A stretch of 22,295 bases of DNA from a plasmid, in the sequence record NZ_LR134444.1; one strand, written 5' to 3'. The position numbers and the translations under genes were made by a program. The notes beneath the pieces are model-generated. The model was not told the DNA's origin and made no database searches. It worked only from the letters and a program-made list of their open reading frames with translations. The first letter of the stretch is position 1, and each line of letters starts with the position of its first letter. Below are positions 1 to 20,018 of the stretch, in pieces.

Positions 1-525
1 CTGCGCGCCCGCATCACCGAGGCGCAGCGCGCCGCGGTCGACGCCTTCGACGCCGCCTCCGCGGGCCGCGACACCGGCCTCGCCGTCCCCATGTCGGCCG
101 TCGACACCAGCTCCGTCGGCGCGCTGCGGTTCCACGACGGCGTCGTCACCCTGCCGCCCGAGGTGCGCGAGACCTCCGGCGAGTTCACCATCGACCCCGC
201 CCGCCTCGTCGGCCGGGAGGCGATCGACTGGGACGCGCTCGCCGCCGCCGTCAACGAGGCCGTCGGCACATCCGACGGTGCGACCCTCACCGACGTTCTC
301 GCCGCCATCGACGCGCCCCGCGCAGGCGACGTGGTCGGCGTCTGGTCGCTCGGCGCGCGGTACGGCACCGTCGATGAGGACCGCCTGGTCACCGTCGTCG
401 CGCACACCCAGCGCGGGCCCCGCGAGATGACGGTGCCGCACGTCGCGTTCGCCGCCGCGCTCCCGCCCCTGACCCCCGCCTCGGCCGCGCCCGAGCCCAC
501 CACGCTCTTCGAGCAGGAGGCCTGA
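1..525 (+). CDS. 3' portion (174 codons) of a gene that begins upstream of the window. By position in a tightly coupled three-gene SMC-like module it is the candidate JetA/MksF-like (kleisin-type, DUF3375-class) subunit
   Basis: Frame 1 is open from nt 1 with no stop until TGA 523-525. That stop lies 1 nt before the ATG of the next gene. The assignment rests on operon context with the downstream JetB-like and JetC-like genes, not on a recognised motif. Confidence 0.4.
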   Translation: MRARITEAQRAAVDAFDAASAGRDTGLAVPMSAVDTSSVGALRFHDGVVTLPPEVRETSGEFTIDPARLVGREAIDWDALAAAVNEAVGTSDGATLTDVLAAIDAPRAGDVVGVWSLGARYGTVDEDRLVTVVAHTQRGPREMTVPHVAFAAALPPLTPASAAPEPTTLFEQEA

Positions 526-526
526 C

Positions 527-1324
527 ATGACCGACGAGACGCAGCTCGACGACACGCTGGACGTACCCGCCGACGAGGGCCTGCCAGAGATCGACCTCGC
601 CGACTTCAGCATCGCCGACGACGAGGCCGTGAAGTCGCTCCGCGGCGCCGACACCGCGCCGCGGTTCGACGGCGACACCTCCGCCCTGCCGAACTCGGTC
701 TGCTACGCGCTACAGGAACTGATCGCGGCGCCGCACGTCTCGTCGCGGTCGAAGAACTGGGCGGTGATCGAGGCCGAGGAGACGCTGCTGCGCAGCCGGC
801 TCTCCGAACTGAACCTCCTGCTGGAGATCAACCGCGAGACCAAGCACGCCTTCACCCGCCAGGTCAGCGAGAACGACCCGCGGCAGCGGAATCTGCTGCG
901 CGCGCAGAGCCTCTCGCTCGCCGGGTCGGTGCTGGCGCTGTTCCTGCGCCTCAAGCACCTGTCCAGCCCGGACGAGACCGCGGTCGTGGAGCGGCAGGAG
1001 ATGATCGACCACCTGCTGACCTTCCGACCCGCGCGCGACACCGACGAGGCGGGCTTCGTGAAGAAGGCCGACGCGGCGATCAACCAGCTGGAGACCCGCC
1101 GCCTGATCCGCCGAGTCGGCACCAGCGACCGGTACGCCGTGCACTCGGTGATCGCCTCCCTGCTCACCCCCGAGCAGGTGGACCTGTACACCGCCGCGTA
1201 CCGCGACCTGGCCAGCACCGATCAGGACCTGGGCGAGGCGGCGGCCCCCGTCGACGGAGCAGAAGAGCAGGACGGCGAGGACAGCACCGTCGAACCCGAG
1301 AACGAGACGCAGGAGCAGCAGTGA
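527..1324 (+). CDS. JetB/MksE-like (KITE-type, DUF4194-class) subunit of a Wadjet/MksBEF-like SMC module; 265 aa, acidic C-terminal tail
   Basis: ATG 527 has a GGAGG about 9 nt upstream. The stop TGA 1322-1324 overlaps the GTG start of the large SMC-like gene (GTGA). Size, acidity and position immediately 5' of the JetC-like gene fit MksE/JetB. No catalytic motifs are expected for this family. Confidence 0.5.
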   Translation: MTDETQLDDTLDVPADEGLPEIDLADFSIADDEAVKSLRGADTAPRFDGDTSALPNSVCYALQELIAAPHVSSRSKNWAVIEAEETLLRSRLSELNLLLEINRETKHAFTRQVSENDPRQRNLLRAQSLSLAGSVLALFLRLKHLSSPDETAVVERQEMIDHLLTFRPARDTDEAGFVKKADAAINQLETRRLIRRVGTSDRYAVHSVIASLLTPEQVDLYTAAYRDLASTDQDLGEAAAPVDGAEEQDGEDSTVEPENETQEQQ

Positions 1325-4300
1325 CCCGCAAGCATCTCGGCCAGTACCGCCTGACCCGCCTGCAGGTGGTCAACTGGGGCACGTTCGACGGCTACAAGGA
1401 CTTCCCCATCGACGAGCGGGGCGTGATCCTCACCGGCCCGTCGGGCTCGGGCAAGAGCTCGCTGATGGACGCGCATTCGGTGGTGCTGCTGCCCACGTAC
1501 GACCAGTCCTTCAACGCCTCCGCCGACATGACTGCCAAGGGCGCCAAGCGCGCCGCCCGCTCCATGGCGGACTACGTCCGCGGCGCGTGGTCGGTCAACG
1601 ACGACGAGCACCAGCAGTCCAAGGTGCAGTACCTGCGCGGCGATTCGGCCACGTGGTCGGCGGTCGCGGCGACCTACGACAACGGCGCGGGCAACGTCAC
1701 GACGGCCGTCGCCGTGAAGTGGTTTCCGGGCAGCGGCACCGACGGCGCCTCGCTCAAGTCCTGGTACCAGATCCACTCCGGCGCTTTCGATCTCCTGGAC
1801 CTGCAGGAGTGGGCGACCGCCGGCTTCGACACCCGGGGCTGGCGCGCGCGGCACAGTGGCGTCGAGTCCTTCGACACCCAGGCCGCCTACCAGGACGCGC
1901 TGCGCCGCCGGGTCGGCATCGGCACCTCCAGCGCCGCGCTGGCGCTGCTCGGCAAGGCCAAGGCGATGAAGAACGTCGGCGACCTCGACGCCTTCATCCG
2001 CACCTACATGCTGGACCGGCCGCAGACCTACGCCCGCGCCGAGCGCCTCGTGGAGAACTTCACCCAGCTCGACGAGGCCTACCGGGCCGCGGCCCGCGCC
2101 GAGGCGCAGGAGAAGGTGCTGCGGCCGATGCCGGAGGCCTACGAGACGTACCGCTCCGCCACCGTCGGCACGACCCGCGCCGCCGACCTGCTCGGCGCGC
2201 CCGTGCGGTCCTACCTGCGCGGGCACAAGCTGCGGCTGCTGCAGGAGCAGATGGACCGGATCGAGGGCGAGCGCGCCGGCATGGACGCGCAGATCGCCCG
2301 CTGGGAGGACAGGGCCGAGGAGCGCAAGATGCGCTACAACGACCTGCTGCACCGGCTCCGGCAGGAACAGGGCGAGGTCGGGGTGCTCGAGGCCGAGCTG
2401 CAGTCGCGCGAGCTGCAGACCCAAGCCCGCCAACGCGCGTACGAGCGGTTCGCCGCCGCCGTGGAGAAGCTGGGCGAGCGCGCGCCGGAGTCGGCGGAGG
2501 AGTTCGCCGCGCTGCGCGAGCAGGTCCCCGGCATCCGCGACCGCGCCACCGAGGCCGCCGAGGCCCTCGCCGGGCGCGTGCATTCCGCCTACACGGACGA
2601 GTCGGACGCGCGGCGCGCCGTCGAATCCGTCGACGACGAGCTGTCCGTGCTCGACCGCCGCGCCTCGCTGCTGCCGCCCGCCCTGCTCGACCAGCGCGAC
2701 GTGATCGCCCGCGCCACCGGCGTTCCCGCCGAGGACCTGCCGTACGCGGCGGAGCTGATCGACGTCGAGCCCGACGAGCAGGCGACGTGGGCCGGCGCCG
2801 CCGAGCGCGTGCTGCGGCCGCTGGCCACGACGCTGCTCGTGCCCGCCGAGCACCAGCGCGCGGTCGCCGACTACGTCAACGCGAACCGGGTGCACGGCGT
2901 GCTCACCTACCAGGTGGTCGACGGTGCCGACCCCACGCGCCCGGAACCCGGCTCCCTGGCCACCAAGCTGACCGTGGACACCGCGAGCGCGGCCGGACGG
3001 TGGCTGGCCGGCGCGGTCGCGCGCGCCGCACGGCACACGTGCGTGGACTCCCCGACGAGCTGGAGAAGCACGAGCAGGCCGTCACCGCCGAGGGCCTCGT
3101 CAAGAACGCGGGCGGCCGGTTCCGCAAGGACGACCGCCGCGCCGTCGCCGACCGCTCGCAGTGGGTGCTCGGCACCAACACCGGCAGCAAGCGCGAGGCG
3201 CTGCAGCGCCGCCGTGACGAGCTGGCCGCCGTCCACGCCAAGGCCGCCGAGGCGTCGGCGACCCTGCGCGACGACCTCGCCGAGCACAAGGCCGTCGCCG
3301 ACAGCGCGGCCGGTGTGCTCGGGTACACGTCGTGGGCCGAGCTCGACCACTGGGCGGCGAAGGCCGAGGCCGAGGAGCTGGCCGACCGGATCTCCGACGC
3401 CCGCTCCGGCAACGCCGACCTCGGGGAGCTGGAGCTGCAGGCCGACAACGCCTACGGCGAGCTGGCCGAGGCGCAGACCCGCATCGGCGCGCTGACCGAG
3501 ACCATGAACCGCGCCGGCACGGAGTTCGACGACCTGCTGGCCGAGTTCGAGAAGATCGACGCCGAGAGCGCGCCGAAGCTCGCGGAGCCCGACGAGGACT
3601 TCCTCGCCACCGCGCTGTGGCACCTGCTCACGGCCGACGAGGCGAAGCCGCGCCGGCTCACCCTCGACACCTTCGGCGAGGTCCGCGCCGACCTCCGCGC
3701 CGAGTTGGAGCGCCAGCAGGCGGCGGCCACCGCCGAACGGGACGCCGCCGAGGCCCGGATCGTCCGCACCGCGGAGCAGTTCCTGCGCGAGTGGCCGGAC
3801 GCCTCGACCGAGCTGTCCGCCGATGTGGCGTCCGCCCCGGACTTCGTGGCCGTGCACGAGAACCTCGTCGCGCACGGGCTCGCGGCGGCCACGGAGAAGT
3901 TCCGGCGGCTCATCACGACCGACGTCAGCCACTCGGTGTCGAACCTGTTCAAGGAGGTCGACGACACGCACCGGGCCATCACCCGCGGCATCGCCGACGT
4001 CAACGCGGGCCTGCGCCGGGTGGAGTTCAACGAGGGCACCTACCTGCAGATCGCCTACGCCGCCCGCCCGACGCCGGAGGCCACGGAGTTCGCGAAACTC
4101 GTCGACGACATGGTCCGCGACGCCCCCGCCGCGAAGCGGGCGGAGCCGGCGGCGATGGCCGCGCAATTCAAGCGGATCCGAGGCCTGGTGCTGCGCCTGA
4201 CCGGCGACGACCCCGAGTCGCGCCGGTGGACGGAGAACGTCCTCGACGTCCGCACGGGCTACTCCTTCTACGGCAAGGAGAACGCCGCCGGCGCTGAGCC

Positions 4301-4682
4301 GGACGCCCCCGCGGTGGTCACCTACCGCAACACCGCCACCAACTCCGGCGGCGAGCAGGAGAAGCTGGTCGCCTTCTGCCTCGCGGCGGCGCTGAGCTTC
4401 GCGCTCGGCTCACACGGGATCGACGGATCGAACGAGCCCGCCTTCGCGCCGCTCATGCTCGACGAGGCCTTCAGCAAGTCGGATGAGCGCTTCTCGGCGC
4501 AGTCGCTGCGGGCCTTCGAGCAGTTCGGCTTCCAGCTGCTCATCGCCGCCCCGATCCGCATGGTCGGCATCGTCGAGCCGTTCATCGGGCAGGTCATCCT
4601 CGTCGACAAGCAGGTCACGCCCGACGGTGCCCGCTCGGACGCCCGGTACGCGACGTTCGGCGAGCTCACCCCGTCGCGCTGA
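1321..4682 (+). pseudogene. JetC/MksB-like SMC-family ATPase (SbcC/MukB-like), about 1120 codons, interrupted by an apparent 1-nt frameshift near nt 3050 (C4 run 3050-3053)
   Basis: The N-terminus LTRLQVVNWGTFDGY...GPSGSGKSSLMDA (Walker A) reads in frame 1 (ORF 1321..3495). The C-terminus NSGGEQEKLVAF (signature-like), LMLDEAFSKSDE (Walker B/D-loop) and stop 4680-4682 read in frame 3 (ORF 1587..4682). The middle is a long Ala/Glu/Arg-rich coiled coil. The frame 1 translation is sensible up to ...AARHTCVDSP and low-complexity afterwards. The frame 3 translation is sensible only from PDELEKHEQAVTAEGLVKNAGG onwards. One extra base in tccccgacgag (giving tcc ccg gac gag) would produce a continuous protein. 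Confidence 0.7.
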
Positions 4683-4700
4683 TCCGGCCCCGGCCGTGCG

Positions 4701-5654
4701 TCAGTCGGCTGCGCCGGCGCGGTGTGCGCGCGGCGTGCGGCCGAACCGCCGGCTGAACGCCGTGCTGAAGGCGCTCGCGGAGCCGTAGCCGACGGAGTCG
4801 GCGATGAAGGAGATCCCGCGTGCGGCCCAGCGCGGATCGGTGAGCCGGTCCCGGGCGAGGTCGAGGCGCTCGCCGCGCACGGCGTCGGAGAAGGTCTCGC
4901 CCGTGCGGGAGAGCACCGCCTGGATGTGCCGGGCCGACCAGCCGACGGCCGCCGCGACCCCGGCCAGGCTGAGATCCGGCTCGGTGGCGTGCGCGCGCAC
5001 GTGGCGGAGCACCGCGGCCCGGACGTCGTCGTCGGCGGTGCCGGCACCGTCGGCCTCACCGCTCGCCGCGAGGCAGAACAGGTCCACGGCCCGGTCGCAG
5101 GCGGCGTCGAACTCGGCGGCGGTGAGCTGCTCCCGCTCATCGATCAGCGCCGCCGCCAGGTCGCGCGTGACGCGGCCCAAGCCGCGGCCGCCGCGCAGCC
5201 GTACCCCCTCCTTGGCGACCGAACCGAGCGTCCGGGAGACCCGGTGCTCGGGGATGAGCAGGGCGAGCGCCGAGGCGTCGTCGTCGTGCGCGAGCACGAA
5301 GGGCGAGTCGATGGAGACGAGCACCATCTCCCCCGGCAGCAGGGCGCCCTCCGTGACGTCGCCGCCGACGTGCAGCGCACCCTTCAGGGGCATGAACAGC
5401 TCGTAGTGGCCGCGCGGGTCGTTGCGGATGCCGCGGGCGTCGCGCCGCACGTGCTCGCGCTGGCTGGTCCAGGAGACGAGCTGGTACTCCTCGGTGCGTT
5501 GGCGCAGCACGTCGCCGCGGTAGCCGTCGCCGTCGAAGGAGATGTCGAACTCGCCGTGGACGCCGCTGCACCAGTCGCGCCACGCGCCGTGCGCGCGGGA
5601 GCCGGTCAGGCGCCGCTCGGCCCCGGTGACCAGGCCGTCGATGGTGTACGGCAC
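4701..5654 (-). CDS. AraC-family transcriptional regulator: N-terminal cupin-like AraC-binding domain and C-terminal HTH
   Basis: The C-terminal HTH region reads ...LSLAGVAAAVGWSARHIQAVL...FIADSVGYGSASAFSTAFSRRFGRTP. I prefer GTG (complement of 5652-5654) as the start over the long ORF's upstream Met, because GGAGGAG lies 6 nt upstream on the minus strand. Stop is TGA (complement of 4701-4703). The gene is convergent with jetC and divergent from the cyclase gene. Confidence 0.8.
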   Translation of the reverse strand: MPYTIDGLVTGAERRLTGSRAHGAWRDWCSGVHGEFDISFDGDGYRGDVLRQRTEEYQLVSWTSQREHVRRDARGIRNDPRGHYELFMPLKGALHVGGDVTEGALLPGEMVLVSIDSPFVLAHDDDASALALLIPEHRVSRTLGSVAKEGVRLRGGRGLGRVTRDLAAALIDEREQLTAAEFDAACDRAVDLFCLAASGEADGAGTADDDVRAAVLRHVRAHATEPDLSLAGVAAAVGWSARHIQAVLSRTGETFSDAVRGERLDLARDRLTDPRWAARGISFIADSVGYGSASAFSTAFSRRFGRTPRAHRAGAAD

Positions 5655-5749
5655 GCCCTGCTCCTCCCCTCCCGCGGCGCGTGCGCCTGCGCGAAAGAAC
5701 CGTGCGCGCGGGCGAACCTCCCGCCGTCGCGCGCTTCCTACCTTCGATT

Positions 5750-5782
5750 GTGACACGCGTCACCGCCGGGTGGGCCCGGCGG
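5750..5782. promoter_or_regulatory. Candidate regulatory elements in the araC/cyclase divergent region: the inverted repeat GTGAC-acgc-GTCAC (5750-5763), then a GC-rich hairpin CCGCCGGG-tggg-CCCGGCGG (5763-5782) in the likely 5' leader of the cyclase gene
   Basis: Both symmetries were read directly from the sequence. They lie 20-50 nt upstream of the cyclase ATG (5802) and about 100 nt upstream of the araC start. Confidence 0.3.
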
Positions 5783-5801
5783 ACCATCCGTAGGAGGACC
5801 G

Positions 5802-6767
5802 ATGACCGAACAGACCGTGACCGCGCCCGACCTCGGCGACCTGCTCGCCCAGGCACCGTCCAACTGGGGCAAGTGGGGCCCCGACGACGAGGTGGGCTCG
5901 CTCAACTACCTCGGCCCGGAGCAGGCGATCGCCGCCGCGGCGCTGGTCCGCAGCGGCAAGGTCTTCACCCTGCAGCGGCTCATCGGCGACCCGAAGGGCG
6001 ACCCCGTCTGGCCCGGCCGCAGCCCCGCGGTCCGCACGCAGATCATGGACGAGGCCAGCTGGGACGGCGCGGAGGCGCCGCAGTTCCCCGGCGGCCTGCA
6101 CTACGCCGACGACAAGATCGACGCCTTCCTGCAGGGCTCCACACAGTACGACGCCCTGGGCCACGTCTGGTACGACGGCAAACTGTGGAACGGCTACGAC
6201 GCCCGCACCACCGTCGGCGGCATGGACGTCGCCAGTGTCGAGCCGATCGCGCAACGCGGCGTCGTGGGCCGCGGCGTGCTGCTCGACATGGCGCGCTTCC
6301 GCGGCAAGGAGCACCTCGACACCGCGGAGACCTTCGACCACACCGACCTCGAGGCGTGCGCCGCCGCGCAGGGTGTGGAGCTGCGCCCGCGCGACGTGCT
6401 GCTCATCCGCACCAACTACCTGCAGCTCTTCTTCGAGCTCGGCGACGCGTTCTACGAGGGCTTCTGCGAGCCCGGTCTCCAGTACAGCCCGGAGCTGGTG
6501 CAGTGGTTCGCCGACCGGGAGATCCCGAACCTGGTGACCGACACCATCGCCAACGAGGTCACCACCGACCAGAACAACGGCGTCGCGCTCACCCTGCACT
6601 GCGCGTTGATGCGCAACCTGGGCGTCGTCTTCACCGAGATCACCGACCTCGAGGCCCTGGCCGCGGACTGCGCCGCCGACGGCGTCTACGAGTTCATGTA
6701 CACCGCCGCCCCGCTGAAGATCGCCCAGGGCAGCGGCGCGCCCGTCAACCCGGTCGTGGTGAAGTGA
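5802..6767 (+). CDS. Cyclase-family protein (PF04199-type, kynurenine formamidase-like hydrolase/cyclase fold)
   Basis: ATG 5802 has GGAGG 4 nt upstream. The N-terminal NWGKWGPDDEVGSLNYLGPEQAIAAAALVRSGKVFTL and the later TQYDALGHVWYDGKLWNGY match what I recall of the conserved blocks of this family. Stop TGA 6765-6767 overlaps the next gene's GTG. Confidence 0.75.
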   Translation: MTEQTVTAPDLGDLLAQAPSNWGKWGPDDEVGSLNYLGPEQAIAAAALVRSGKVFTLQRLIGDPKGDPVWPGRSPAVRTQIMDEASWDGAEAPQFPGGLHYADDKIDAFLQGSTQYDALGHVWYDGKLWNGYDARTTVGGMDVASVEPIAQRGVVGRGVLLDMARFRGKEHLDTAETFDHTDLEACAAAQGVELRPRDVLLIRTNYLQLFFELGDAFYEGFCEPGLQYSPELVQWFADREIPNLVTDTIANEVTTDQNNGVALTLHCALMRNLGVVFTEITDLEALAADCAADGVYEFMYTAAPLKIAQGSGAPVNPVVVK

Positions 6768-8428
6768 CCGCGGTTCCGGGAGCCGCGCAGCGGCCGTGGG
6801 CCGGCCGGTACGAGACGCTGCCCGCCGAGGTGGACATCGCCTTCGACAGCGCCCTCGCCATGTTCCGCGCGGGCGTGGCGAGCCACCCCGACCAGGCGGC
6901 GATCCGCTACTTCGACGGGGCGATCACCCGCCGCGAGCTGGACGAGCTCACGGACGCTTTGGCCGCCGGCCTGCTCGCCGAGGGCTTCGCACCCGGGGAC
7001 CGCCTGGCGCTCTACCTGCAGAACGTCCCGCAGTTCGTGATCGGCATGATCGCCGCCTGGAAGGCCGGCGGCTGCACCGTCTCGATCAACCCGATGAGCC
7101 GCGCCCGGGAGCTCGAGAACCTGCTCCTCGACTCGGGCGCGACCGCGCTGATCGCGCTCGACGACCTGTACGAGGAGATCGCGCGCGAGGTGGTCCCGGC
7201 CACCGCTGTCCGCACGGTCTTCACCACGAGCGGGCTCGACCTGCAGAGCCGCGCCGACCCGCGGCTGTTCCCCGCTCCCCGTCGCGCGACGCCCGACGGC
7301 GCGACGGACCTGCTGGAGTTCATCGCGGCGCACCGCGGCGAGGTCCCACCGCCGGTCGCTCCCGCGCCGGGCGACACCGCCTTCCTCACCTACACCTCGG
7401 GCACCACGGGCAAGCCGAAGGGCGCGATCAACACCCACCGCAACGTGGTCTTCACCGCGACGGTCTACCGGGACGCGGCGAAGTTCGCGCCCGGCCCCGA
7501 CGCGGCGGTGCTCGCGATCGCGCCCCTGTTCCACATCACCGGCCTCATCGGGCACATCGCGCTGAGCATGCTCGCCCCGATGCCGATGATCCTGGCCTAC
7601 CGCTTCGATCCCGCGGTGATGCTGGAGACGATGCGTGAGCACCGCCCCACCTGCACGATCGGCGCGGTGACCGCGTTCAACGCGCTCCTCAACCACGCGG
7701 ACTACGACCGGGACGCGCTCGCCTCCCTGACGTCCGTGTACTCGGGCGGCGCGCCGATCTCCCCGACGGCCGCGCGACGCTTCGCCGAGGCGACCGGCCG
7801 GCCCCTGCACAACGCCTACGGGCTCACCGAGACCACGAGCCCCATGACGGTCTCGCCGTACGGCGTGGAGATCCCCGTCGATCCGGACTCCGGGGCGCTG
7901 TCGGTGGGGCTGCCGGCACCGTCGACGGTGGTGCGGATCGTCGGGGACGACGGTGCGGACCTCCCGCTCGGGGAGATCGGCGAGATCGTCGCCGAGGGGC
8001 CCCAGGTGGTCGCCGGCTACTGGAACAAGCCCGAGGAGACCGCGGCCGGGATCCCCGGGGGCGCGCTGCACAGCGGCGACGTGGGCTTCATGGACGATCG
8101 CGGCTGGGTGTTCATCGTCGACCGCAAGAAGGACATGATCAACGCCTCGGGCTACAAGGTGTGGCCGCGCGAGGTCGAGGACGTGCTCGCCGAGCACCCC
8201 GCGGTCCGGGAGGCGGCCGTCGTCGGCGTGCCGGACGAGGTGCGGGGCGAGACGGTGCGCGCCTTCGTCAGCCTGATGCCGGGCGCCGACGCCTCCCCGG
8301 AGGACCTGATCGCGCACTGCCGCGAGCGCATGGCCGCCTACAAGTACCCCCGCGACGTCCGGATCGTGGAGGAGCTTCCGAAGACGGTGACCGGGAAGAT
8401 CCTGCGCCGCGAGCTGCGCGACGCCTGA
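6764..8428 (+). CDS. AMP-dependent synthetase/ligase (acyl-CoA synthetase, FadD-like)
   Basis: AMP-binding motif TYTSGTTGKPKGA, followed by YGLTETT and a C-terminal ...LPKTVTGKILRRELR. GTG 6764 overlaps the cyclase stop (GTGA). Stop is TGA 8426-8428. Confidence 0.85.
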   Translation: MTAVPGAAQRPWAGRYETLPAEVDIAFDSALAMFRAGVASHPDQAAIRYFDGAITRRELDELTDALAAGLLAEGFAPGDRLALYLQNVPQFVIGMIAAWKAGGCTVSINPMSRARELENLLLDSGATALIALDDLYEEIAREVVPATAVRTVFTTSGLDLQSRADPRLFPAPRRATPDGATDLLEFIAAHRGEVPPPVAPAPGDTAFLTYTSGTTGKPKGAINTHRNVVFTATVYRDAAKFAPGPDAAVLAIAPLFHITGLIGHIALSMLAPMPMILAYRFDPAVMLETMREHRPTCTIGAVTAFNALLNHADYDRDALASLTSVYSGGAPISPTAARRFAEATGRPLHNAYGLTETTSPMTVSPYGVEIPVDPDSGALSVGLPAPSTVVRIVGDDGADLPLGEIGEIVAEGPQVVAGYWNKPEETAAGIPGGALHSGDVGFMDDRGWVFIVDRKKDMINASGYKVWPREVEDVLAEHPAVREAAVVGVPDEVRGETVRAFVSLMPGADASPEDLIAHCRERMAAYKYPRDVRIVEELPKTVTGKILRRELRDA

Positions 8429-11213: not shown

Positions 11214-11262
11214 CTCATGTCGGCGGACATCGCCGCAGGGGAATCACAACGAGGAGGACGCG

Positions 11263-12510
11263 ATGCGGAACCCGAACCGGAGGAACCGGATCCGAAGCGC
11301 GCTGGTGCTGCCGGCGGCGCTCATCCCGATGCTGGGCCTGGTGCCCGCGGTCGCGGGGGCCGAGCCGACCACACCGGCCCCGGCACCGGTCACGACGCAG
11401 GCTCCGGCCACTACGACGACCACGCCACCGGCGCCCACGCCGACGCAGAAGCCGACGACCACCACCCCGGCCCCCACGCCGAGCACCCCGGCGACCGTCA
11501 CCCCGTCGCCGACGATCACGCTCCCGACCACGCCGCTGCCGACCACCACGACGCCGCCGCAGGGCCCGCCCGGCCGGCTCACCGTCGCCGCGGTGCAGAT
11601 CATCGACGCGAAGACGCAGGGCGTCGGCGTGCCCGGCGCGACCGTCCGGGTCCAGGGCTGCTCCGGCGGCCCGGCGGCGACGCTCTCGCACGGCGGCGCC
11701 ACGACGGTGACCGGCCCGTGCGTCCGCGCCACCGTGGTGAACGTGCCGACCAACTGGCACCTCGCCTCTCCGTCGGTGCAGACGAGGACGTCGACCTCGG
11801 GGCGTGTCGACTTCCTCTTCAGCCTGGAGCGCGGCGGGATCGTCCCGCCGACGTCGACGACGACGCCGCCGAACCGGCACGTCCGCTTCACCCTCGCCGC
11901 GCGCGATCAGGACGGCCGGGGCGTCGCCTCGGAGTACGCGGTCGCGGAGTGCGACACCTGGCGGCCGCTGGGCGGGGCGCGCACCGACAGCGCGGGCGAC
12001 GGCGGGGGCGCCTTCCCCCGCGACTGCGTCAGCGTGGTGCCCACCGCGTGGCCGTCCTCGTGCGTGCTGCTGGGCCCGAACGCCTACTCCCGCGTCGAGG
12101 GCAACGGCGTGAACCGGCTCGCCTTCCGCTTCCGCTGCGGCGTCACGATCCCACCCGGCGAGGTCGAGACCAACGGCACGCTGGTCAAGACCGACCGCGT
12201 CACCGGGGCCCCGCTCGCGGGCGCGTCCTTCGTGATCGCGCGCTGCGGCTCCGACGAGGCCGTCCGCGCCGTGACCACCGGCGAGAACGGCGTCGCCGCC
12301 TTCTCGCTGCCGTCGGGCTGCTACCGGGCCATCGAGACGGCCGCCCCGGCGGGTTACGTCCGCGACGCCGCGGCCGTCGCCTTCGAGGTACGCCTGACAC
12401 CACAGTTCCAGGTCCGGGTGACCAACTCGAAGATCGGCGCCGGCCCGGTGGTCCGCAACCCCGGAGTCCGCGTGCCGATCGCGTCCATCCCGTCCGGACG
12501 GACCGTCTGA
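11263..12510 (+). CDS. Secreted surface protein: signal peptide, Pro/Thr-rich linker, C-terminal prealbumin-like (SpaA/Cna-B-type) fold domain; no LPXTG sorting signal
   Basis: GAGGAGGA precedes ATG 11263. N-terminus MRNPNRRNRIRSALVLPAALIPMLGLVPAVAGA|EP (Sec signal). The C-terminal block TDRVTGAPLAGASFVIARCGSDE...GENGVAAFSLPSGCYRAIETAAPAGYV resembles the prealbumin-fold domains of pilins and adhesins. The protein ends ...IASIPSGRTV with no LPXTG, hydrophobic stretch or positively charged tail. Confidence 0.65.
   Translation: MRNPNRRNRIRSALVLPAALIPMLGLVPAVAGAEPTTPAPAPVTTQAPATTTTTPPAPTPTQKPTTTTPAPTPSTPATVTPSPTITLPTTPLPTTTTPPQGPPGRLTVAAVQIIDAKTQGVGVPGATVRVQGCSGGPAATLSHGGATTVTGPCVRATVVNVPTNWHLASPSVQTRTSTSGRVDFLFSLERGGIVPPTSTTTPPNRHVRFTLAARDQDGRGVASEYAVAECDTWRPLGGARTDSAGDGGGAFPRDCVSVVPTAWPSSCVLLGPNAYSRVEGNGVNRLAFRFRCGVTIPPGEVETNGTLVKTDRVTGAPLAGASFVIARCGSDEAVRAVTTGENGVAAFSLPSGCYRAIETAAPAGYVRDAAAVAFEVRLTPQFQVRVTNSKIGAGPVVRNPGVRVPIASIPSGRTV
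11368..11575 (+). repeat. Low-complexity Pro/Thr-rich coding repeat (PT linker) within the secreted-protein gene
   Basis: About 70 residues of TTPAPAPVTTQAPATTTTTPPAPTPTQKPTTTTPAPTPSTP..., encoded by reiterated ACC/CCG/ACG codons. Confidence 0.6.
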
Positions 12511-13106
12511 TGCTGCGCGGCGCACGGTCCCTCGTCGTCGCGGCCGCGGCGGTGCTCGCCCTCGCGGGGTGCGGGAGCACCGTCGAGGGGACGGCGGCGG
12601 CACCGTCGTCCAACCCGAGCGCGCAGAGCGATCTGCGGCCCCCGGTGAGCGCGACCGCGACGGAGCCGACGACGCCGGTCGCGGTCACCGTCGACGGGGC
12701 GCAGGCCCCGATCGACGCCGTCGCCACCGACTCCCAGGGCGCCCTGTACCCGCCCACCGACGTGAACCGGCTCGGCTGGTGGGTCGACTCCGCGCTCCCG
12801 GGGTCCGGCGCCGGGTCGGTCGTCGTCACCGGGCACGTGGACGACGCCCGGCAGGGCGCCGGCTACGCGAAGCGCTTCGCCGGCCTCGCCCGCGGCGACG
12901 AGGTCACCCTCACCGGCAAGGACGGGGCGGCGGTCCGGTACCGCGTCACACGCACCGCGTCCGTCGGCAAGGGCGTGCTGCCGACCGACGACCTGAACCG
13001 GCTCGACGGCCCGGAGACCCTGATCCTGGTCACCTGCGGCGGGAAGTTCATCGGCCCGCCGATGGGGTACGAGAACAACGATCTCGTCTACGCGGAGCGC
13101 GCCTGA
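12510..13106 (+). CDS. Sortase-family transpeptidase (class F-like) with lipoprotein-type signal (LALAGC)
   Basis: ATG 12510 overlaps the stop of the surface-protein gene (ATGA). Lipobox LAGCGS. Candidate catalytic His in VVVTGHVDD, Cys in TLILVTCGG (TLxTC-like) and a downstream Arg (YAERA). Confidence 0.55.
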   Translation: MLRGARSLVVAAAAVLALAGCGSTVEGTAAAPSSNPSAQSDLRPPVSATATEPTTPVAVTVDGAQAPIDAVATDSQGALYPPTDVNRLGWWVDSALPGSGAGSVVVTGHVDDARQGAGYAKRFAGLARGDEVTLTGKDGAAVRYRVTRTASVGKGVLPTDDLNRLDGPETLILVTCGGKFIGPPMGYENNDLVYAERA

Positions 13107-15669: not shown

Positions 15670-16812
15670 TCAGGCCACGACCCCGCTCGGGTCGCGCACG
15701 ACGATCCGCAACGAGCGGTCGGCCTTCGCCTCGTACAGCGCGGCGTCCGCGAGCGCGACCGCCTCCGGCAGCAGGCGCGGGTCGAGCCGGGGCACCAGGA
15801 CCACTCCCACGCTCCCCGCGATGAGCGGCGCACCGTCGGACGGGGCGACCAAGCCCCGGAGATCGCCGACGATCGCGTCGACCTCGGCCCGGCTGGTGCC
15901 GGTGCCGATCACGAGGAACTCGTCGCCGCCCATCCGCGCGAGCACGGCGCTCCGCACCCCCGTGCGCAGCAGCTGCGCCGTCTGCACGAGCCGCCGGTCG
16001 CCGGCCTGGTGGCCGTGGGCGTCGTTGAACGCCTTGAAGCCGTCGAGGTCGAGCACGGCGACGGCGGACACCCGGTAGTCGTCTCCCCGGAGGCGGCGTC
16101 GCAGCTCGGTGTCCAGGCCGCGCCGGCCGTACAGCCCGGTGAGGGTGTCGTGATCGCGCTCGACGGTGACCTGGCCGAGCCCGCGGCGCCCCGCCTCGAC
16201 CACGAACTGCACCACCATCGGCAGCGCGATCGCGATGGTCGCCGCGGGCGCGACGACCGGGTACAACTCGCTGAACCCGATCCCGTCGATGCGCATGGTC
16301 ATGACGGTCGCCGCCACGATCACCGCCGCACTGAACAAGCAGTGCAGCAACAGGATCCGCCACCCCAGGAGAAAGGCGACGAGCATCGCCAGCATCCCGA
16401 AGAACATCGTCGCACCGATGCGACCGTAGCCGGACTGCGTGAGACCGCCGACCAGCAGAACGAGGTCCGCGCAGATCACGAAGACGATCGCGTCCCGCCA
16501 CGACGGTCGGCGCCGGAACAACCACCACAGACCGAGCGTCGTACCGGCTGCAGCCGCGGCGAGGTACCCCGCGGTCGCCAGGGGCGTCGCCGGACGGATC
16601 GGCAGGAACAGGGTGACCGCGGCGAGCGGCAGGATCATGAGTGCCAGGCCCGAGACCACGAGGCGCAGGGCGAGGCCACCGCCCTGGCCGATGATGCCCG
16701 ACGTGGCGAAGGCGTACTCCGCCCGGCCCGCCTCTCGCCATCCGACCCGGTCGGTGAGGGCGCGGACGATCCGACGAAGGCTGGCACCGAGCGATCGCTG
16801 GCGAGGGGTCAC
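15670..16812 (-). CDS. Membrane-bound diguanylate cyclase: 6-TM N-terminal domain plus GGDEF domain (paralog 3 of 3)
   Basis: GGDEF hallmarks RDHDTLTGLYGRRG, LDLDGFKAFNDAHGHQAGD and RMGGDEFLV. N-terminal motif GWREAGRAEYAFATS followed by about 6 hydrophobic helices. GTG start (complement of 16810-16812) lies 11 nt after the previous gene's stop. Confidence 0.8.
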   Translation of the reverse strand: MTPRQRSLGASLRRIVRALTDRVGWREAGRAEYAFATSGIIGQGGGLALRLVVSGLALMILPLAAVTLFLPIRPATPLATAGYLAAAAAGTTLGLWWLFRRRPSWRDAIVFVICADLVLLVGGLTQSGYGRIGATMFFGMLAMLVAFLLGWRILLLHCLFSAAVIVAATVMTMRIDGIGFSELYPVVAPAATIAIALPMVVQFVVEAGRRGLGQVTVERDHDTLTGLYGRRGLDTELRRRLRGDDYRVSAVAVLDLDGFKAFNDAHGHQAGDRRLVQTAQLLRTGVRSAVLARMGGDEFLVIGTGTSRAEVDAIVGDLRGLVAPSDGAPLIAGSVGVVLVPRLDPRLLPEAVALADAALYEAKADRSLRIVVRDPSGVVA

Positions 16813-16823
16813 GATCGCAAAGC

Positions 16824-17999
16824 CTAGTCGGGGCCGACGACGTCCGGCACGGTGAGATCACGAACGACGATGCGGAGCGAGCGGTCGGCCTTGGCCATGT
16901 AGAGCGCCCGATCGGCCTCGCCGATCGCGGCGGGGAGATCGGACGTCTGGATCCGCGGGCGCACGACGAGGCCGACGCTGCCGGCGATCGGGCCGCCCTC
17001 GCCCACGAGGCGACGGAGGTCTCCGATCACGACGTCGGCCTCCGTGCGGCCGAGTCGCAGCGCGACGATCACGAACTCGTCGCCGCCCATCCGGCCGATC
17101 AGGGCGCTCGACAGGCCGCTCCGGAGCAGGCTCGCGGTGTCCGCGAGGTACTGGTCACCCGCGAGATGCCCGTAGGTGTCGTTGTAGCTCTTGAAGCTGT
17201 CGAGGTCGAGGACGGCCACGACCGCGGTGTCGTGCTCACGCCGGTGGACCAGGCCCCGCAGGGTCGCCTGCAGGCCGGCGCGGCTGAACAGCCCGGTGAG
17301 GGTGTCGCGGTTGCGCTCGACGGTCACCACGCCGATCCCGCGCCGCCCGAACTCGACGATGAACTGGACGAGCATCGGCAGTGCGAAGTCGATCGTCGCG
17401 GCCGGCGCGAGGATCGCGTACAACTCCCCCATCGGGACCCCGTCGACGTGCACCGCCGCAGCGGAGCACGCGGCGATGGCGGCGAGGGAGAAGACGCAGT
17501 GCACGACCAGGACTCGCCACCCGAGCAGGAACGCGGTGAGCATCGCCAGCATGCCGAGGTAGGTGGTGCCGGCGACCTTGGCGATCCCGAACTGCGCGAG
17601 ACATCCGGTGAGCAGGCAGAGGTCGGCGAGCGCGACGAACGCCATCGCGTGCACGGCCCGGGGGTGACGCAGGCGGAGCCACCACACGCCCAGGACCGCA
17701 CTGCCGCTCGCGGAGAGAGCGAACACGATCATCGCGCCGGTGGTCTGCGGGCGAGCGGCGGAGAACAGGACCCCGATGCACAGCGGCACCATCAGTAGTG
17801 CGAGGGATCCGACCACGAACCGCAGCGCGATACCGCCGCCCTGTCCCTTGATCCAGGACGTCGCCTGCTCGTACTCCGCGCGCCCCGCGTAACGCCAGCC
17901 GGAACGGCGGGTCAGGGCCCGGTATCCGGCGCGCAGCAGCAGCGGCAGATCGACCGGTCCCCACAGCTCGCCGGACGGTCGCCGCGCGTCAGCGGCCAA
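16824..17999 (-). CDS. Membrane-bound diguanylate cyclase: 6-TM plus GGDEF (paralog 2 of 3)
   Basis: RNRDTLTGLFSRAG, LDLDSFKSYNDTYGHLAGD and RMGGDEFVIV. N-terminal GWRYAGRAEYEQATS motif. TTG start (complement of 17997-17999). Stop is TAG (complement of 16824-16826). Confidence 0.8.
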   Translation of the reverse strand: MAADARRPSGELWGPVDLPLLLRAGYRALTRRSGWRYAGRAEYEQATSWIKGQGGGIALRFVVGSLALLMVPLCIGVLFSAARPQTTGAMIVFALSASGSAVLGVWWLRLRHPRAVHAMAFVALADLCLLTGCLAQFGIAKVAGTTYLGMLAMLTAFLLGWRVLVVHCVFSLAAIAACSAAAVHVDGVPMGELYAILAPAATIDFALPMLVQFIVEFGRRGIGVVTVERNRDTLTGLFSRAGLQATLRGLVHRREHDTAVVAVLDLDSFKSYNDTYGHLAGDQYLADTASLLRSGLSSALIGRMGGDEFVIVALRLGRTEADVVIGDLRRLVGEGGPIAGSVGLVVRPRIQTSDLPAAIGEADRALYMAKADRSLRIVVRDLTVPDVVGPD

Positions 18000-18037
18000 C
18001 GCTGTTCCCGGTCGTCACGGGGGATGAGTCTACCGCG

Positions 18038-19255
18038 TCAGAACGTCCCCGGTGCCGGTGCCCGCGCGCCGTCGTGCGGCCGAGCCAGGTCCCGCACGAC
18101 GACCGCCGATGTCGCCGACCGCTTGGCCTCGTAGAGGGCTTTGTCCGCCTCCAGGGCGAGCTCCGCGAGTCGGTCCGCGTCGCGGCCGGGGGCGAGCACG
18201 ACGCCGAGGCTCGCCGCGATGCCCGCGTCCACCGGATCACCGCGTCCGTGCAGGAGCGCGCGCAGCTCGTCGACGGTCCGAGTCGCGTCGTCCGTGCCCA
18301 CGCGCACCGCGAAGACGACGAACTCGTCGCCGCCGTTCCGGCCGACGAGAAGTCGCGGGACCGCGTGTAGCCGGGCGGCCACGTCCACGAGCATCTGATC
18401 TCCCGCCGCGTGCCCGTGGCCGTCGTTGTACCGCTTGAAGCCGTCGAGGTCGAGCACACCGGCGACCAGCACGTCATCACCCGACGTGCGGTGCACGGCA
18501 CGCCGCATCGCGAGATCCATTCCGCGGCGGTTGTACACGCCGGTCAGGCTGTCGATGTACCACTCGCGGGAGACCCGGGTCAGTCCGAACCTTCCCGCCT
18601 CGACGACCACCTGGATGATCACCGGCAGGCCGACCACGGTGGTGATCGCGGGAGTCGTGTAGACGTACAGATCCATCGGCGTCCGCGCCTCCGCCAGGAT
18701 CGCGTACCCGGTGAGCCCGCCGATGAGGACGAGCGAGTACACGCAGTGAACCAGCAGGATGCGCCACCCCAGGAAGAAGGCGGCGAACATCCCCAGCATG
18801 GCGAGGTGGATGGTCCCGCAGATCCGGGCCGTGGGATCGGACAGGATCGAGACGCCGACGCCGATCAGCACATCGGCCGCGAACAGGAACCGGGTCGCTT
18901 CACGTGCCCTGGGCCACGGGCCCATGAGCCAGCGGACGCCGAGAAGGAATCCGGCGACCGCGACGGTGAGGTGGATCGACCGGGCCGGAAGGCCGTGCGG
19001 CCCCATCGGGTTGAACTGCATCACGACCGCCAGCGGCAGCATCATCATCGCCAGCGTCGCGACGGTGATCCGCAGCGCGCGCTGACCGCGGATGAAGCGG
19101 AGCGATTCGGTGGTGAACGCGTACTCCTCCGCGCCGGCCGATCGCCAGCCCTGCGGATCGAGAAGCTCCCGCCGGGCGCGCCCGATCAGCCGACGCCACG
19201 ACGTTCGGCGCCGCCCGCGCCCCGGCGGGGTCGACGGGTCAGGCTTCGCGGACAC
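18038..19255 (-). CDS. Membrane-bound diguanylate cyclase: 6-TM plus GGDEF (paralog 1 of 3)
   Basis: YIDSLTGVYNRRG, LDLDGFKRYNDGHGHAAGD and RNGGDEFVVF. N-terminal GWRSAGAEEYAFTTES motif. GTG start (complement of 19253-19255) lies 17 nt inside the 3' end of trpA. No alternative in-frame start exists before the conserved N-terminal motif. Confidence 0.75.
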   Translation of the reverse strand: MSAKPDPSTPPGRGRRRTSWRRLIGRARRELLDPQGWRSAGAEEYAFTTESLRFIRGQRALRITVATLAMMMLPLAVVMQFNPMGPHGLPARSIHLTVAVAGFLLGVRWLMGPWPRAREATRFLFAADVLIGVGVSILSDPTARICGTIHLAMLGMFAAFFLGWRILLVHCVYSLVLIGGLTGYAILAEARTPMDLYVYTTPAITTVVGLPVIIQVVVEAGRFGLTRVSREWYIDSLTGVYNRRGMDLAMRRAVHRTSGDDVLVAGVLDLDGFKRYNDGHGHAAGDQMLVDVAARLHAVPRLLVGRNGGDEFVVFAVRVGTDDATRTVDELRALLHGRGDPVDAGIAASLGVVLAPGRDADRLAELALEADKALYEAKRSATSAVVVRDLARPHDGARAPAPGTF

Positions 19256-20018
19256 CGGCGGCGAGCTCAGCGGTCAGGGCGCGGACCGCGTCCAGCGACT
19301 CCCCCGCCGCACTGACCAGCGCGGAGCCCACGATCACCGCGTCGGCGTACGCGGCGATCTCCGCGGCCTGCGCCCGGGAGCGGACGCCGAGGCCGACGCC
19401 GACGGGAATGTCGGAGACCTCGCGAATGCGTGCGACCAACTCGGGCGCGACGTTGTCGACGGCATCGCGGGCGCCGGTGACGCCCATCGTCGAGGCGGCG
19501 TAGAGGAACCCGGACGAGGCCTTGGCGGTCATCGCCAGCCGCTCGGGCGTCGACGACGGCGCGGCCAGGAAGACCTTGTCCAGGCCGTGCCGATCGGCGG
19601 CCGCGATCCACTCGTCGGCCTCCTCGGGGATGAGGTTCGGCGTGATCATGCCCCGGCCGCCGGCTGCGGCGAGGTCGCGCGCGAAGGCCTCGACGCCGTA
19701 CTTGAGCACGGGGTTCCAGTAGGCCATCACGACGGGCGCCGCACCCGCGGCGGCGACGGCCTCGGCGTAGGCGAAGATGTCGCGCACCCGGATGCCGCCG
19801 CGCAGGGCGTCGTCGGCGGCGCGCTGGATGACGGGGCCGTCCATGACGGGATCGCTGTAGGCCACACCCAGCTCCACGATGTCGGCGCCGGACTCGGCCA
19901 TGGCGACGACGGTGTCGATGCCGCCTTGCTTGGACGGGTACCCGCAGGGCAGGTACGTGACGAGGGCCGCGCGGTTCTCCGCCCGGCACTGCTCGAAGAC
20001 CGGTGCCAGTGCGCTCAC
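19239..20018 (-). CDS. trpA: Tryptophan synthase alpha chain
   Basis: 259 aa, with ...[12 protein letters not shown]...[22 protein letters not shown]...YWNPVLKYG...[14 protein letters not shown]...IPVGVGLGV, collinear with mycobacterial TrpA. GTG start (complement of 20016-20018) overlaps the trpB TGA (GTGA). GGGGGAGAA RBS. Confidence 0.9.

Follow-up and report, generated by a model that had tools for sequence, protein, structure and literature searches.

What would a Wadjet-like operon do if it carries no gene for the Wadjet nuclease? The question is raised by sequence record NZ_LR134444.1 of Tsukamurella tyrosinosolvens, a stretch of 22,295 nucleotides (nt) that we analyzed at its full length and call the window. 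Three genes at its start resemble jetA, jetB and jetC of type I Wadjet, and no jetD follows them. Type I Wadjet, or JetABCD, is known from the GF4-3 strain of Escherichia coli and from Pseudomonas aeruginosa PA14, and also from Corynebacterium glutamicum (as MksBEFG) and Mycolicibacterium smegmatis (as EptABCD). A previous reading made from the letters alone (the sequence-only reading) had proposed a nuclease-less MksBEF-type condensin, a Wadjet system that lost JetD or a variant whose nuclease lies elsewhere, and had seen in a frameshift within jetC a hint of decay or repurposing. We favor, with a probability of roughly 0.6, an intact, selectively maintained and nuclease-independent JetABC complex of the MksBEF type, which would derive from type I Wadjet and would probably have a condensin-like role. 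The part of this reading that concerns intactness and independence of JetD is, in our estimate, very likely to be correct.

Judged by profile matches, positions 1-4682 are the 3′ part of jetA, followed by jetB and jetC, of an SMC (structural maintenance of chromosomes) module that resembles type I Wadjet. The first gene (jetA/mksF, the kleisin; 1-525, + strand) is represented by its 3′ 174 codons, ending in a TGA stop codon at 523-525. The encoded fragment matches Pfam DUF3375 (E=3.7e-20) and PADLOC JetA1 (E=1.6e-95). Given that the JetA1 match is confined to profile positions 329-502 of 502, the record begins in the middle of the gene and retains its last third. In conspecific chromosomes (L001-L005; numbers beginning with L denote the contigs and loci used for comparison) the full-length protein has 502 amino acids (aa). 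One nucleotide past the jetA stop, and preceded by GGAGG at 516-520, starts jetB/mksE (527-1324, +), which encodes an acidic KITE subunit of 265 aa with matches to Pfam DUF4194 (E=5.8e-31) and MksE (5.8e-06) and to PADLOC JetB1 (E=5.1e-83). The GTG start codon of jetC/mksB, the gene for the SMC ATPase, lies at 1321 and overlaps the jetB stop (GTGA). This gene runs from 1321 to 4682 (+), with its TGA at 4680-4682, and its 3362 nt are divided between two frames. PADLOC model JetC1 (PDLC00518) matches the N-terminal half over profile positions 12-580 (E=1.2e-178) and the C-terminal half over 583-1098 (E=1.7e-141), for a sum of ~1065 bits. Pfam AAA_29 is found at the N terminus and SbcC_Walker_B at the C terminus, and the motifs of an ATPase are present as Walker A (GPSGSGKS), signature (SGGEQEKL) and Walker B (LMLDEAF), all of them invariant among 15 homologues. 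Thus, the translationally coupled JetA-JetB-JetC architecture that the sequence-only reading had recognized, with a partial upstream gene, an acidic 265-aa protein and an ATPase of ~1120 codons, was borne out by each of the searches (DUF3375, DUF4194 and AAA_29/SbcC_Walker_B). The best PADLOC matches of all three proteins are Wadjet type I models. None of the three carries a fused extra domain, and their lengths equal those of relatives that are linked to JetD.

One reason to question the Jet assignment is that the C-terminal Pfam match bears the name "SbcC/RAD50-like Walker B", and that the ATPase also has a weak match to the MukB N-terminal domain. The protein would then be another SMC-like ATPase, either the SbcC of an SbcCD pair or a component of MukBEF proper. 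However, the partners belong to DUF3375 (JetA) and DUF4194 (JetB), and are not SbcD, MukF or MukE. The neighborhood gene tables contain no metallophosphatase, which an SbcC with an SbcD partner would lead one to expect, and the JetC1 match extends over the full length of the protein. Its sole relatives in the PDB are JetC chains, from P. aeruginosa and from E. coli (8dk2, 8as8). The complex is expected to share with MukBEF the same dimer-of-dimers SMC-kleisin-KITE architecture and the lack of a nuclease, but the MukB match amounts to 25.4 bits over only 70 residues and there are no Pfam matches to MukE or MukF, so the locus is not a member of that family. A different ATPase is therefore so improbable that we give the idea practically no weight.

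In a canonical type I operon, jetD would lie where this locus has a spacer of 18 nt (4683-4700), which separates the jetC stop from the stop of a convergent AraC-family gene. Using 18 true JetDs that adjoin related JetCs, we made a JetD profile and ran it unfiltered on all open reading frames of the window and of 93 fetched loci. Its matches below E=0.03 are limited to the 19 known JetDs, each at E<1e-46. As a positive control, the JetD of Nocardia uniformis matches Pfam DUF3322 (1.5e-32) and JetD_C (3.6e-31). The 22,295 nt of the window give no match in any frame, and in conspecific chromosomes no JetD is encoded within 10 kb on either side of the operon. The observation of a missing nuclease gene thus holds both downstream of jetC and upstream of jetA.

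The same is true of relatives, where no jetD intervenes between jetC and the next gene in congeners or in the sister clade. JetD is absent from the loci of 16 representatives of Tsukamurella species, including T. soli and Tsukamurella sp. 8F (75% JetC identity), and from 22 loci of Williamsia, Jongsikchunia and Gordonia jinhuaensis (60-63%). It is also absent from loci of Phytoactinopolyspora, Actinocatenispora and Virgisporangium (46-48%), and from those of a clade in Mycolicibacterium and Gordonia (33-35%). Altogether, 73 JetD-less loci have no JetD within 6-10 kb, by a search that took in these flanks rather than entire Tsukamurella genomes. By contrast, 19 loci, from Nocardia, Amycolatopsis, Lentzea, Actinoplanes, Nocardiopsis and others, have JetCs that are 40-48% identical to that of Tsukamurella and a jetD that overlaps the jetC end. 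Two of the proposals of the sequence-only reading, a nuclease-less complex of MksBEF type and a Wadjet that lost JetD, turn out to describe a single outcome, which these data support.

A second difference from type I Wadjet lies in JetB. The sequence M-x(5-7)-F-x-x-[VIL]-F, with the motif in residues 7-13, opens JetB in all 16 of the JetD-encoding actinobacterial loci that have a JetB; examples of such N termini are MSDTTDPTFTDVFGED and MTGPPDPSFAAIFDEE. Upstream of the conserved PRFDGD anchor, F-x-x-[VIL]-F occurs in none of the 73 JetD-less loci, which represent six lineages; for Tsukamurella the count is 0 of 27 loci. The Tsukamurella protein has an acidic N-terminal tail that begins MTDETQLDDTLDVPADEGLPEIDLADFSI. 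In type I JetB, an N-terminal "IFDR" helix binds the aCAP domain of JetD (PMC10586767; 10.1101/2025.03.10.642339; 10.1101/2023.11.03.565488). From its position and composition, we infer that F-x-x-[VIL]-F is the equivalent of this helix. A PDB search with the single sequence gave no match to a solved JetB N terminus, and a profile search aligned the JetB of PA14 from residue 39 only (E=0.1). Given that the motif and the nuclease gene vanish together several times, the JetABC complexes concerned probably use no JetD, whether linked or unlinked. For the same reason, a nuclease encoded elsewhere in the genome, the third proposal of the sequence-only reading, is unlikely.

We also considered whether dependence on JetD has another marker in JetC, namely F919 of the E. 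coli protein, a residue that inserts into the aCAP pocket of JetD. PDB alignments map its position to AAKRAEP in Tsukamurella JetC. The position is variable even among actinobacterial JetCs whose loci encode JetD and is therefore uninformative, and we dropped it. The "larynx" loop of JetC (around window 4270-4290), which aligns with E. coli F919, has a one-residue insertion in the clade of Tsukamurella and Williamsia relative to all other actinobacterial JetCs.

Is the frameshift in jetC a sign that the system is decaying? On this proposal, the genes left over from the loss of jetD had no further use, and the frameshift would mark the first visible step of pseudogenization. The frameshift is certainly present in the record, where it stems from a run of four C residues at 3050-3053 (+). 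The comparison contigs L001-L008 have five C residues at this site, where each alignment shows a single gap, and all eight of the other contigs that span it encode an intact JetC of 1120 aa. The true gene would accordingly have 3363 nt, with intact orthologues in L001-L007. We aligned the window to GCA_900104775.1, another T. tyrosinosolvens assembly, and over all 22,295 nt found no mismatches and two gaps of one base, both in homopolymers. The second is a run of four G residues at 11238-11241 (+), in an intergenic region ~20 nt upstream of a gene for a SpaA-type pilin; all other assemblies have five. That a second homopolymer is undercalled supports an assembly error as the origin of the jetC frameshift, and a one-base undercall is the simplest reading of it and almost certainly the correct one.

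The status of the record itself is related to this point. The window, which has a G+C content of ~72%, is the whole of a record that is labeled "plasmid" at NCBI (proteins VEH88558 and VEH88559). That it is the entire record follows from the truncated JetC of 724 aa, which corresponds to one public protein, VEH88559.1, from a 22,295-nt record. In the chromosome of GCA_900104775.1, a contig of 4.9 Mb is colinear with it, and an identical JetB is encoded on 16 contigs, this one among them. We found no head-to-tail overlap of the record's ends that would indicate circularity, and a PLSDB search with the record had no match. The record is thus probably a poorly polished chromosomal fragment that was misfiled as a plasmid. 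The style of its accession suggests a long-read assembly from a reference collection, made from the same strain.

Labels of two other public entries also call for caution. NZ_JNYV01000002.1 (L034) is titled Kitasatospora arboriphila, but its jetABC-alkZ locus is essentially identical to that of Williamsia muralis. A JetB resembling that of Tsukamurella strandjordii (P0253) is assigned to Nocardiopsis tropica by one source. Both are likely to be mislabeled or contaminated.

Beyond the frameshift, decay can draw on Tsukamurella sp. PLM1, a "complete genome" (L042, ~7616) whose jetC has a net indel of -1 relative to T. tyrosinosolvens, either a real frameshift or another assembly error. However, JetC is intact not only in the eight contigs but also in ~15 other Tsukamurella species. 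Moreover, purifying selection acts on jetA, jetB and jetC throughout Tsukamurella. We calculated ratios of nonsynonymous to synonymous substitution rates (dN/dS) for pairs of sequences by the method of Nei and Gojobori, in a genome that is GC-rich. Within Tsukamurella, the ratios are 0.07-0.10 for jetC, 0.11-0.17 for jetA and 0.07-0.19 for jetB. Neighboring genes have ratios that are equal or higher, namely 0.08-0.18 (DUF218), 0.13-0.22 (GDPD), 0.08-0.30 (PIG-L) and 0.08-0.24 (TetR), at similar dS, and jetC is the most constrained gene in its neighborhood. The suggestion of a decaying system therefore does not stand: the frameshift exists in this record but, given the fifth C in every other assembly, is no sign of decay. 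A useless remnant is in our view very improbable.

The arrangement without jetD is also stable. It has been kept in at least 16 species-level Tsukamurella genomes and in 22 loci of the Williamsia clade; in Mycolicibacterium and Gordonia, loci without jetD form a jetABC clade that is widespread. Our scan for JetC found 345 loci in all. In a neighbor-joining tree of 57 JetC sequences (100 bootstraps), with the Mycolicibacterium JetD-less clade as outgroup, Tsukamurella and Williamsia form a JetD-less clade with a support of 100. The clade containing JetD has a support of 99, and its JetD-less members are monophyletic in none of the 100 replicates. Parsimony requires two to four changes of JetD state on this tree. 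It is conceivable, though we put it at slightly less than an even chance, that type I Wadjet was converted to a nuclease-free JetABC repeatedly in Actinobacteria, each time with loss of the JetB motif along with jetD. The lineages in question are Tsukamurella together with Williamsia, Phytoactinopolyspora, Actinocatenispora, Virgisporangium, and Mycolicibacterium/Gordonia.

How does the locus compare with systems whose function is better established? It shares with type I Wadjet the gene order, the translational coupling and the combination of DUF3375 and DUF4194 proteins with a JetC-type ATPase. Its closest solved structures are JetC chains, and complete JetABCD operons are found in the actinobacterial relatives whose JetC identity is 40-48%. 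Unlike them, the Tsukamurella locus lacks both jetD and the F-x-x-[VIL]-F of JetB, so that extrusion followed by cleavage should be beyond the capacity of its own gene set. If a nuclease-free complex of the MksBEF type is defined operationally, by a three-gene operon with no mksG/jetD that is stably kept, then the predicted Tsukamurella complex is one.

In gene content, the locus can be likened to MksBEF of P. aeruginosa, a member of a different phylum, which also consists of a kleisin, a KITE protein and an SMC protein with no MksG/JetD. That complex is regarded as a chromosome-acting derivative of JetABCD from which JetD was lost (PMC10586767; 10.1101/2025.03.10.642339). A second parallel is found within the order Mycobacteriales, to which Tsukamurella also belongs. 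M. smegmatis MksB is encoded in an operon with MksEF and without MksG, i.e., a JetD-less operon of the mksFEB type, and it reportedly follows the replisome and acts as a condensin (PMC11329512). The Mycolicibacterium JetD-less clade has a JetC identity of 33-35% to Tsukamurella. M. smegmatis MksB, a possible member of that clade, was not among the top 120 matches, all of which come from other species. For MukBEF of enterobacteria, in turn, a Wadjet-like ancestor has been proposed (10.1101/2022.10.04.510915).

By homology with JetABC, MukBEF and MksBEF, two JetC dimers would be closed by JetA, bound by JetB dimers and joined through the N termini of JetA (10.1101/2022.10.04.510915; PMC10586767). 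The complex would load on DNA and extrude loops using ATP, as its homologues do. Lacking both JetD and the docking motif, it should be unable to cleave, and the DNA would be compacted or organized rather than cut. In parallel to MksBEF of P. aeruginosa and MksB of M. smegmatis, the most likely role would be a condensin-like organization or segregation of the chromosome or of large replicons.

Several points weigh against this reading, in addition to the PLM1 indel and the restriction of the jetD search to flanking regions. The condensin-like role is its least certain step and is argued from precedent, and the equivalence of the JetB motif with the IFDR helix from position and composition. Between distant Tsukamurella species, jetABC diverges faster than aconitase (74% versus 92% aa identity). 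A bacteriophage exclusion (BREX) system lies immediately upstream of jetA and divergent from it in five Tsukamurella genomes (L002 1-8000, L018, L042, L043 and L046). Its genes occupy the site of GDPD/DUF218 and encode BrxA, BrxB, a PglX-like methyltransferase and PglZ; in conspecific chromosomes, for example, a divergent GDPD gene precedes the operon, and in one strain BREX takes its place. Since at least two BrxB variants occur at this one site, it behaves as an insertion hotspot of a defense island. Finally, the contexts of jetABC differ between the chromosomes of Tsukamurella and Williamsia, and in the latter the genes look inserted into a conserved Gordoniaceae neighborhood. Such differing contexts suit an accessory, mobile module.

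These latter observations fit an immune function. As in Wadjet, complete loop extrusion could let JetABC sense small circular DNA, which it could then restrict either without cutting or through an unlinked nuclease. The former could proceed, by analogy with Smc5/6, by compaction, silencing or mis-segregation, while the latter could be a jetD or another effector elsewhere. Besides the hotspot with its BREX variants and the insertion in Williamsia, this idea gains from the best scores of all three proteins on Wadjet type I defense models, from the patchy distribution of the operon in actinobacteria and from the fact that a jetD was sought in loci and their 6-10 kb flanks instead of whole genomes. 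However, plasmid restriction requires JetD and its catalytic glutamate in every system tested (10.1101/2022.10.04.510915; PMC10123090), none of the 73 JetD-less loci has a JetD within 6-10 kb and the loss of the JetB motif in all JetD-less lineages argues against a JetD acting in trans. The stable position of the operon, its vertical inheritance within the genus and the strong purifying selection on it are likewise at odds with this idea. We therefore consider an immune function unlikely, though it is the main alternative. A bolder version of the repeated conversion of Wadjet considered above is that the JetD-less complexes would still restrict plasmids without cutting.

Nor did we find a conserved candidate for a replacement effector beside the operon, and the AlkZ-like and ExoIII neighbors proved to be accidents of synteny. 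A gene for an AlkZ-like DNA glycosylase (Pfam PF06224, E=3.2e-74) starts 4 nt past jetC in all 22 loci of Williamsia, Jongsikchunia and G. jinhuaensis (for example at 13422-14522 in L012, as well as in the 21 further loci of this clade). We rejected it as a swapped effector, because Gordonia insulae and Gordonia amarae (L097, L098) have orthologues in the same neighborhood without jetABC. The conserved Gordonia neighborhood reads sodA-msrA-alkZ-S49 peptidase-GDPD-ferritin, with alkZ directly after msrA. Given that it exists without jetABC, the operon was probably inserted where alkZ already resided, so that the two are neighbors because of the site of insertion and not through a common function. 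PADLOC has no match for the glycosylase. In only three Mycolicibacterium loci of the JetD-less outgroup clade (L077 9336-10112, L078 and L087), an ExoIII/XthA gene overlaps the jetC end; the clade's other loci lack it, and it was rejected as local synteny.

Our search of the literature for Wadjet in Tsukamurella, for a natural JetD-less JetABC or for recurrent loss of JetD together with the JetB motif found nothing specific. That said, these findings should not surprise specialists, since loss of JetD has already been proposed as the origin of MksBEF and the nuclease-free class is known. If the JetB motif is indeed the helix that docks JetD, it would be a simple marker that splits nuclease-dependent from nuclease-independent Jet/Mks systems, and the co-occurrence of jetD and the motif would be a cheap predictor of nuclease dependence. 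If the conversion of Wadjet is also real, pairs of JetD-containing and JetD-less systems at 45-48% JetC identity offer material for testing the domestication of Wadjet into MksBEF/MukBEF condensins. Programs that find defense systems would label this locus an "incomplete Wadjet", and in Mycobacteriales a call of this kind need not mean debris but can stand for a three-gene system that is stable and selected. The analysis also corrects a likely misannotation, namely a chromosomal fragment filed as a plasmid with a jetC that is split by a homopolymer error.

We now note properties of the surrounding genes. The convergent AraC-family regulator, which the sequence-only reading had placed 18 bp after jetC, is indeed found there (4701-5756, - strand), and its orthologue in L001 matches Pfam AraC_binding_2 and HTH_18. 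This gene is outside the SMC module. A consensus scan of the spacer between jetC and the AraC gene found neither a terminator-like hairpin nor a promoter. The regulator gene is the first of a cassette of AraC, cyclase (PF04199) and AMP-dependent ligase genes (window 4701-8428), which separates jetC from a PIG-L gene and occurs only in a subgroup comprising T. tyrosinosolvens, T. hominis, Tsukamurella sp. M9C and T. conjunctivitidis. Apart from the window, its carriers are L015, L016, L018, L020-L022, L042, L043 and L046. By comparison with most other Tsukamurella species, where PIG-L directly follows jetC, the cassette is an insertion confined to the subgroup of T. tyrosinosolvens. The site of the operon is otherwise kept across the genus, with aconitase, TetR and DUF218 (or GDPD) genes on one side and PIG-L, TetR and glycosyltransferase genes on the other.

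Two further features of the window lie well away from the operon. The SpaA-type pilin gene (11263-12510) is followed by a sortase gene (11263-13106 for the two), which together form a small pilus cluster of the Gram-positive kind in an actinobacterium with mycolic acids. Three tandem paralogous genes for GGDEF proteins (diguanylate cyclases) of 380-405 aa occupy 15670-19273 (- strand), beside a gene for an ABC-F ATPase.

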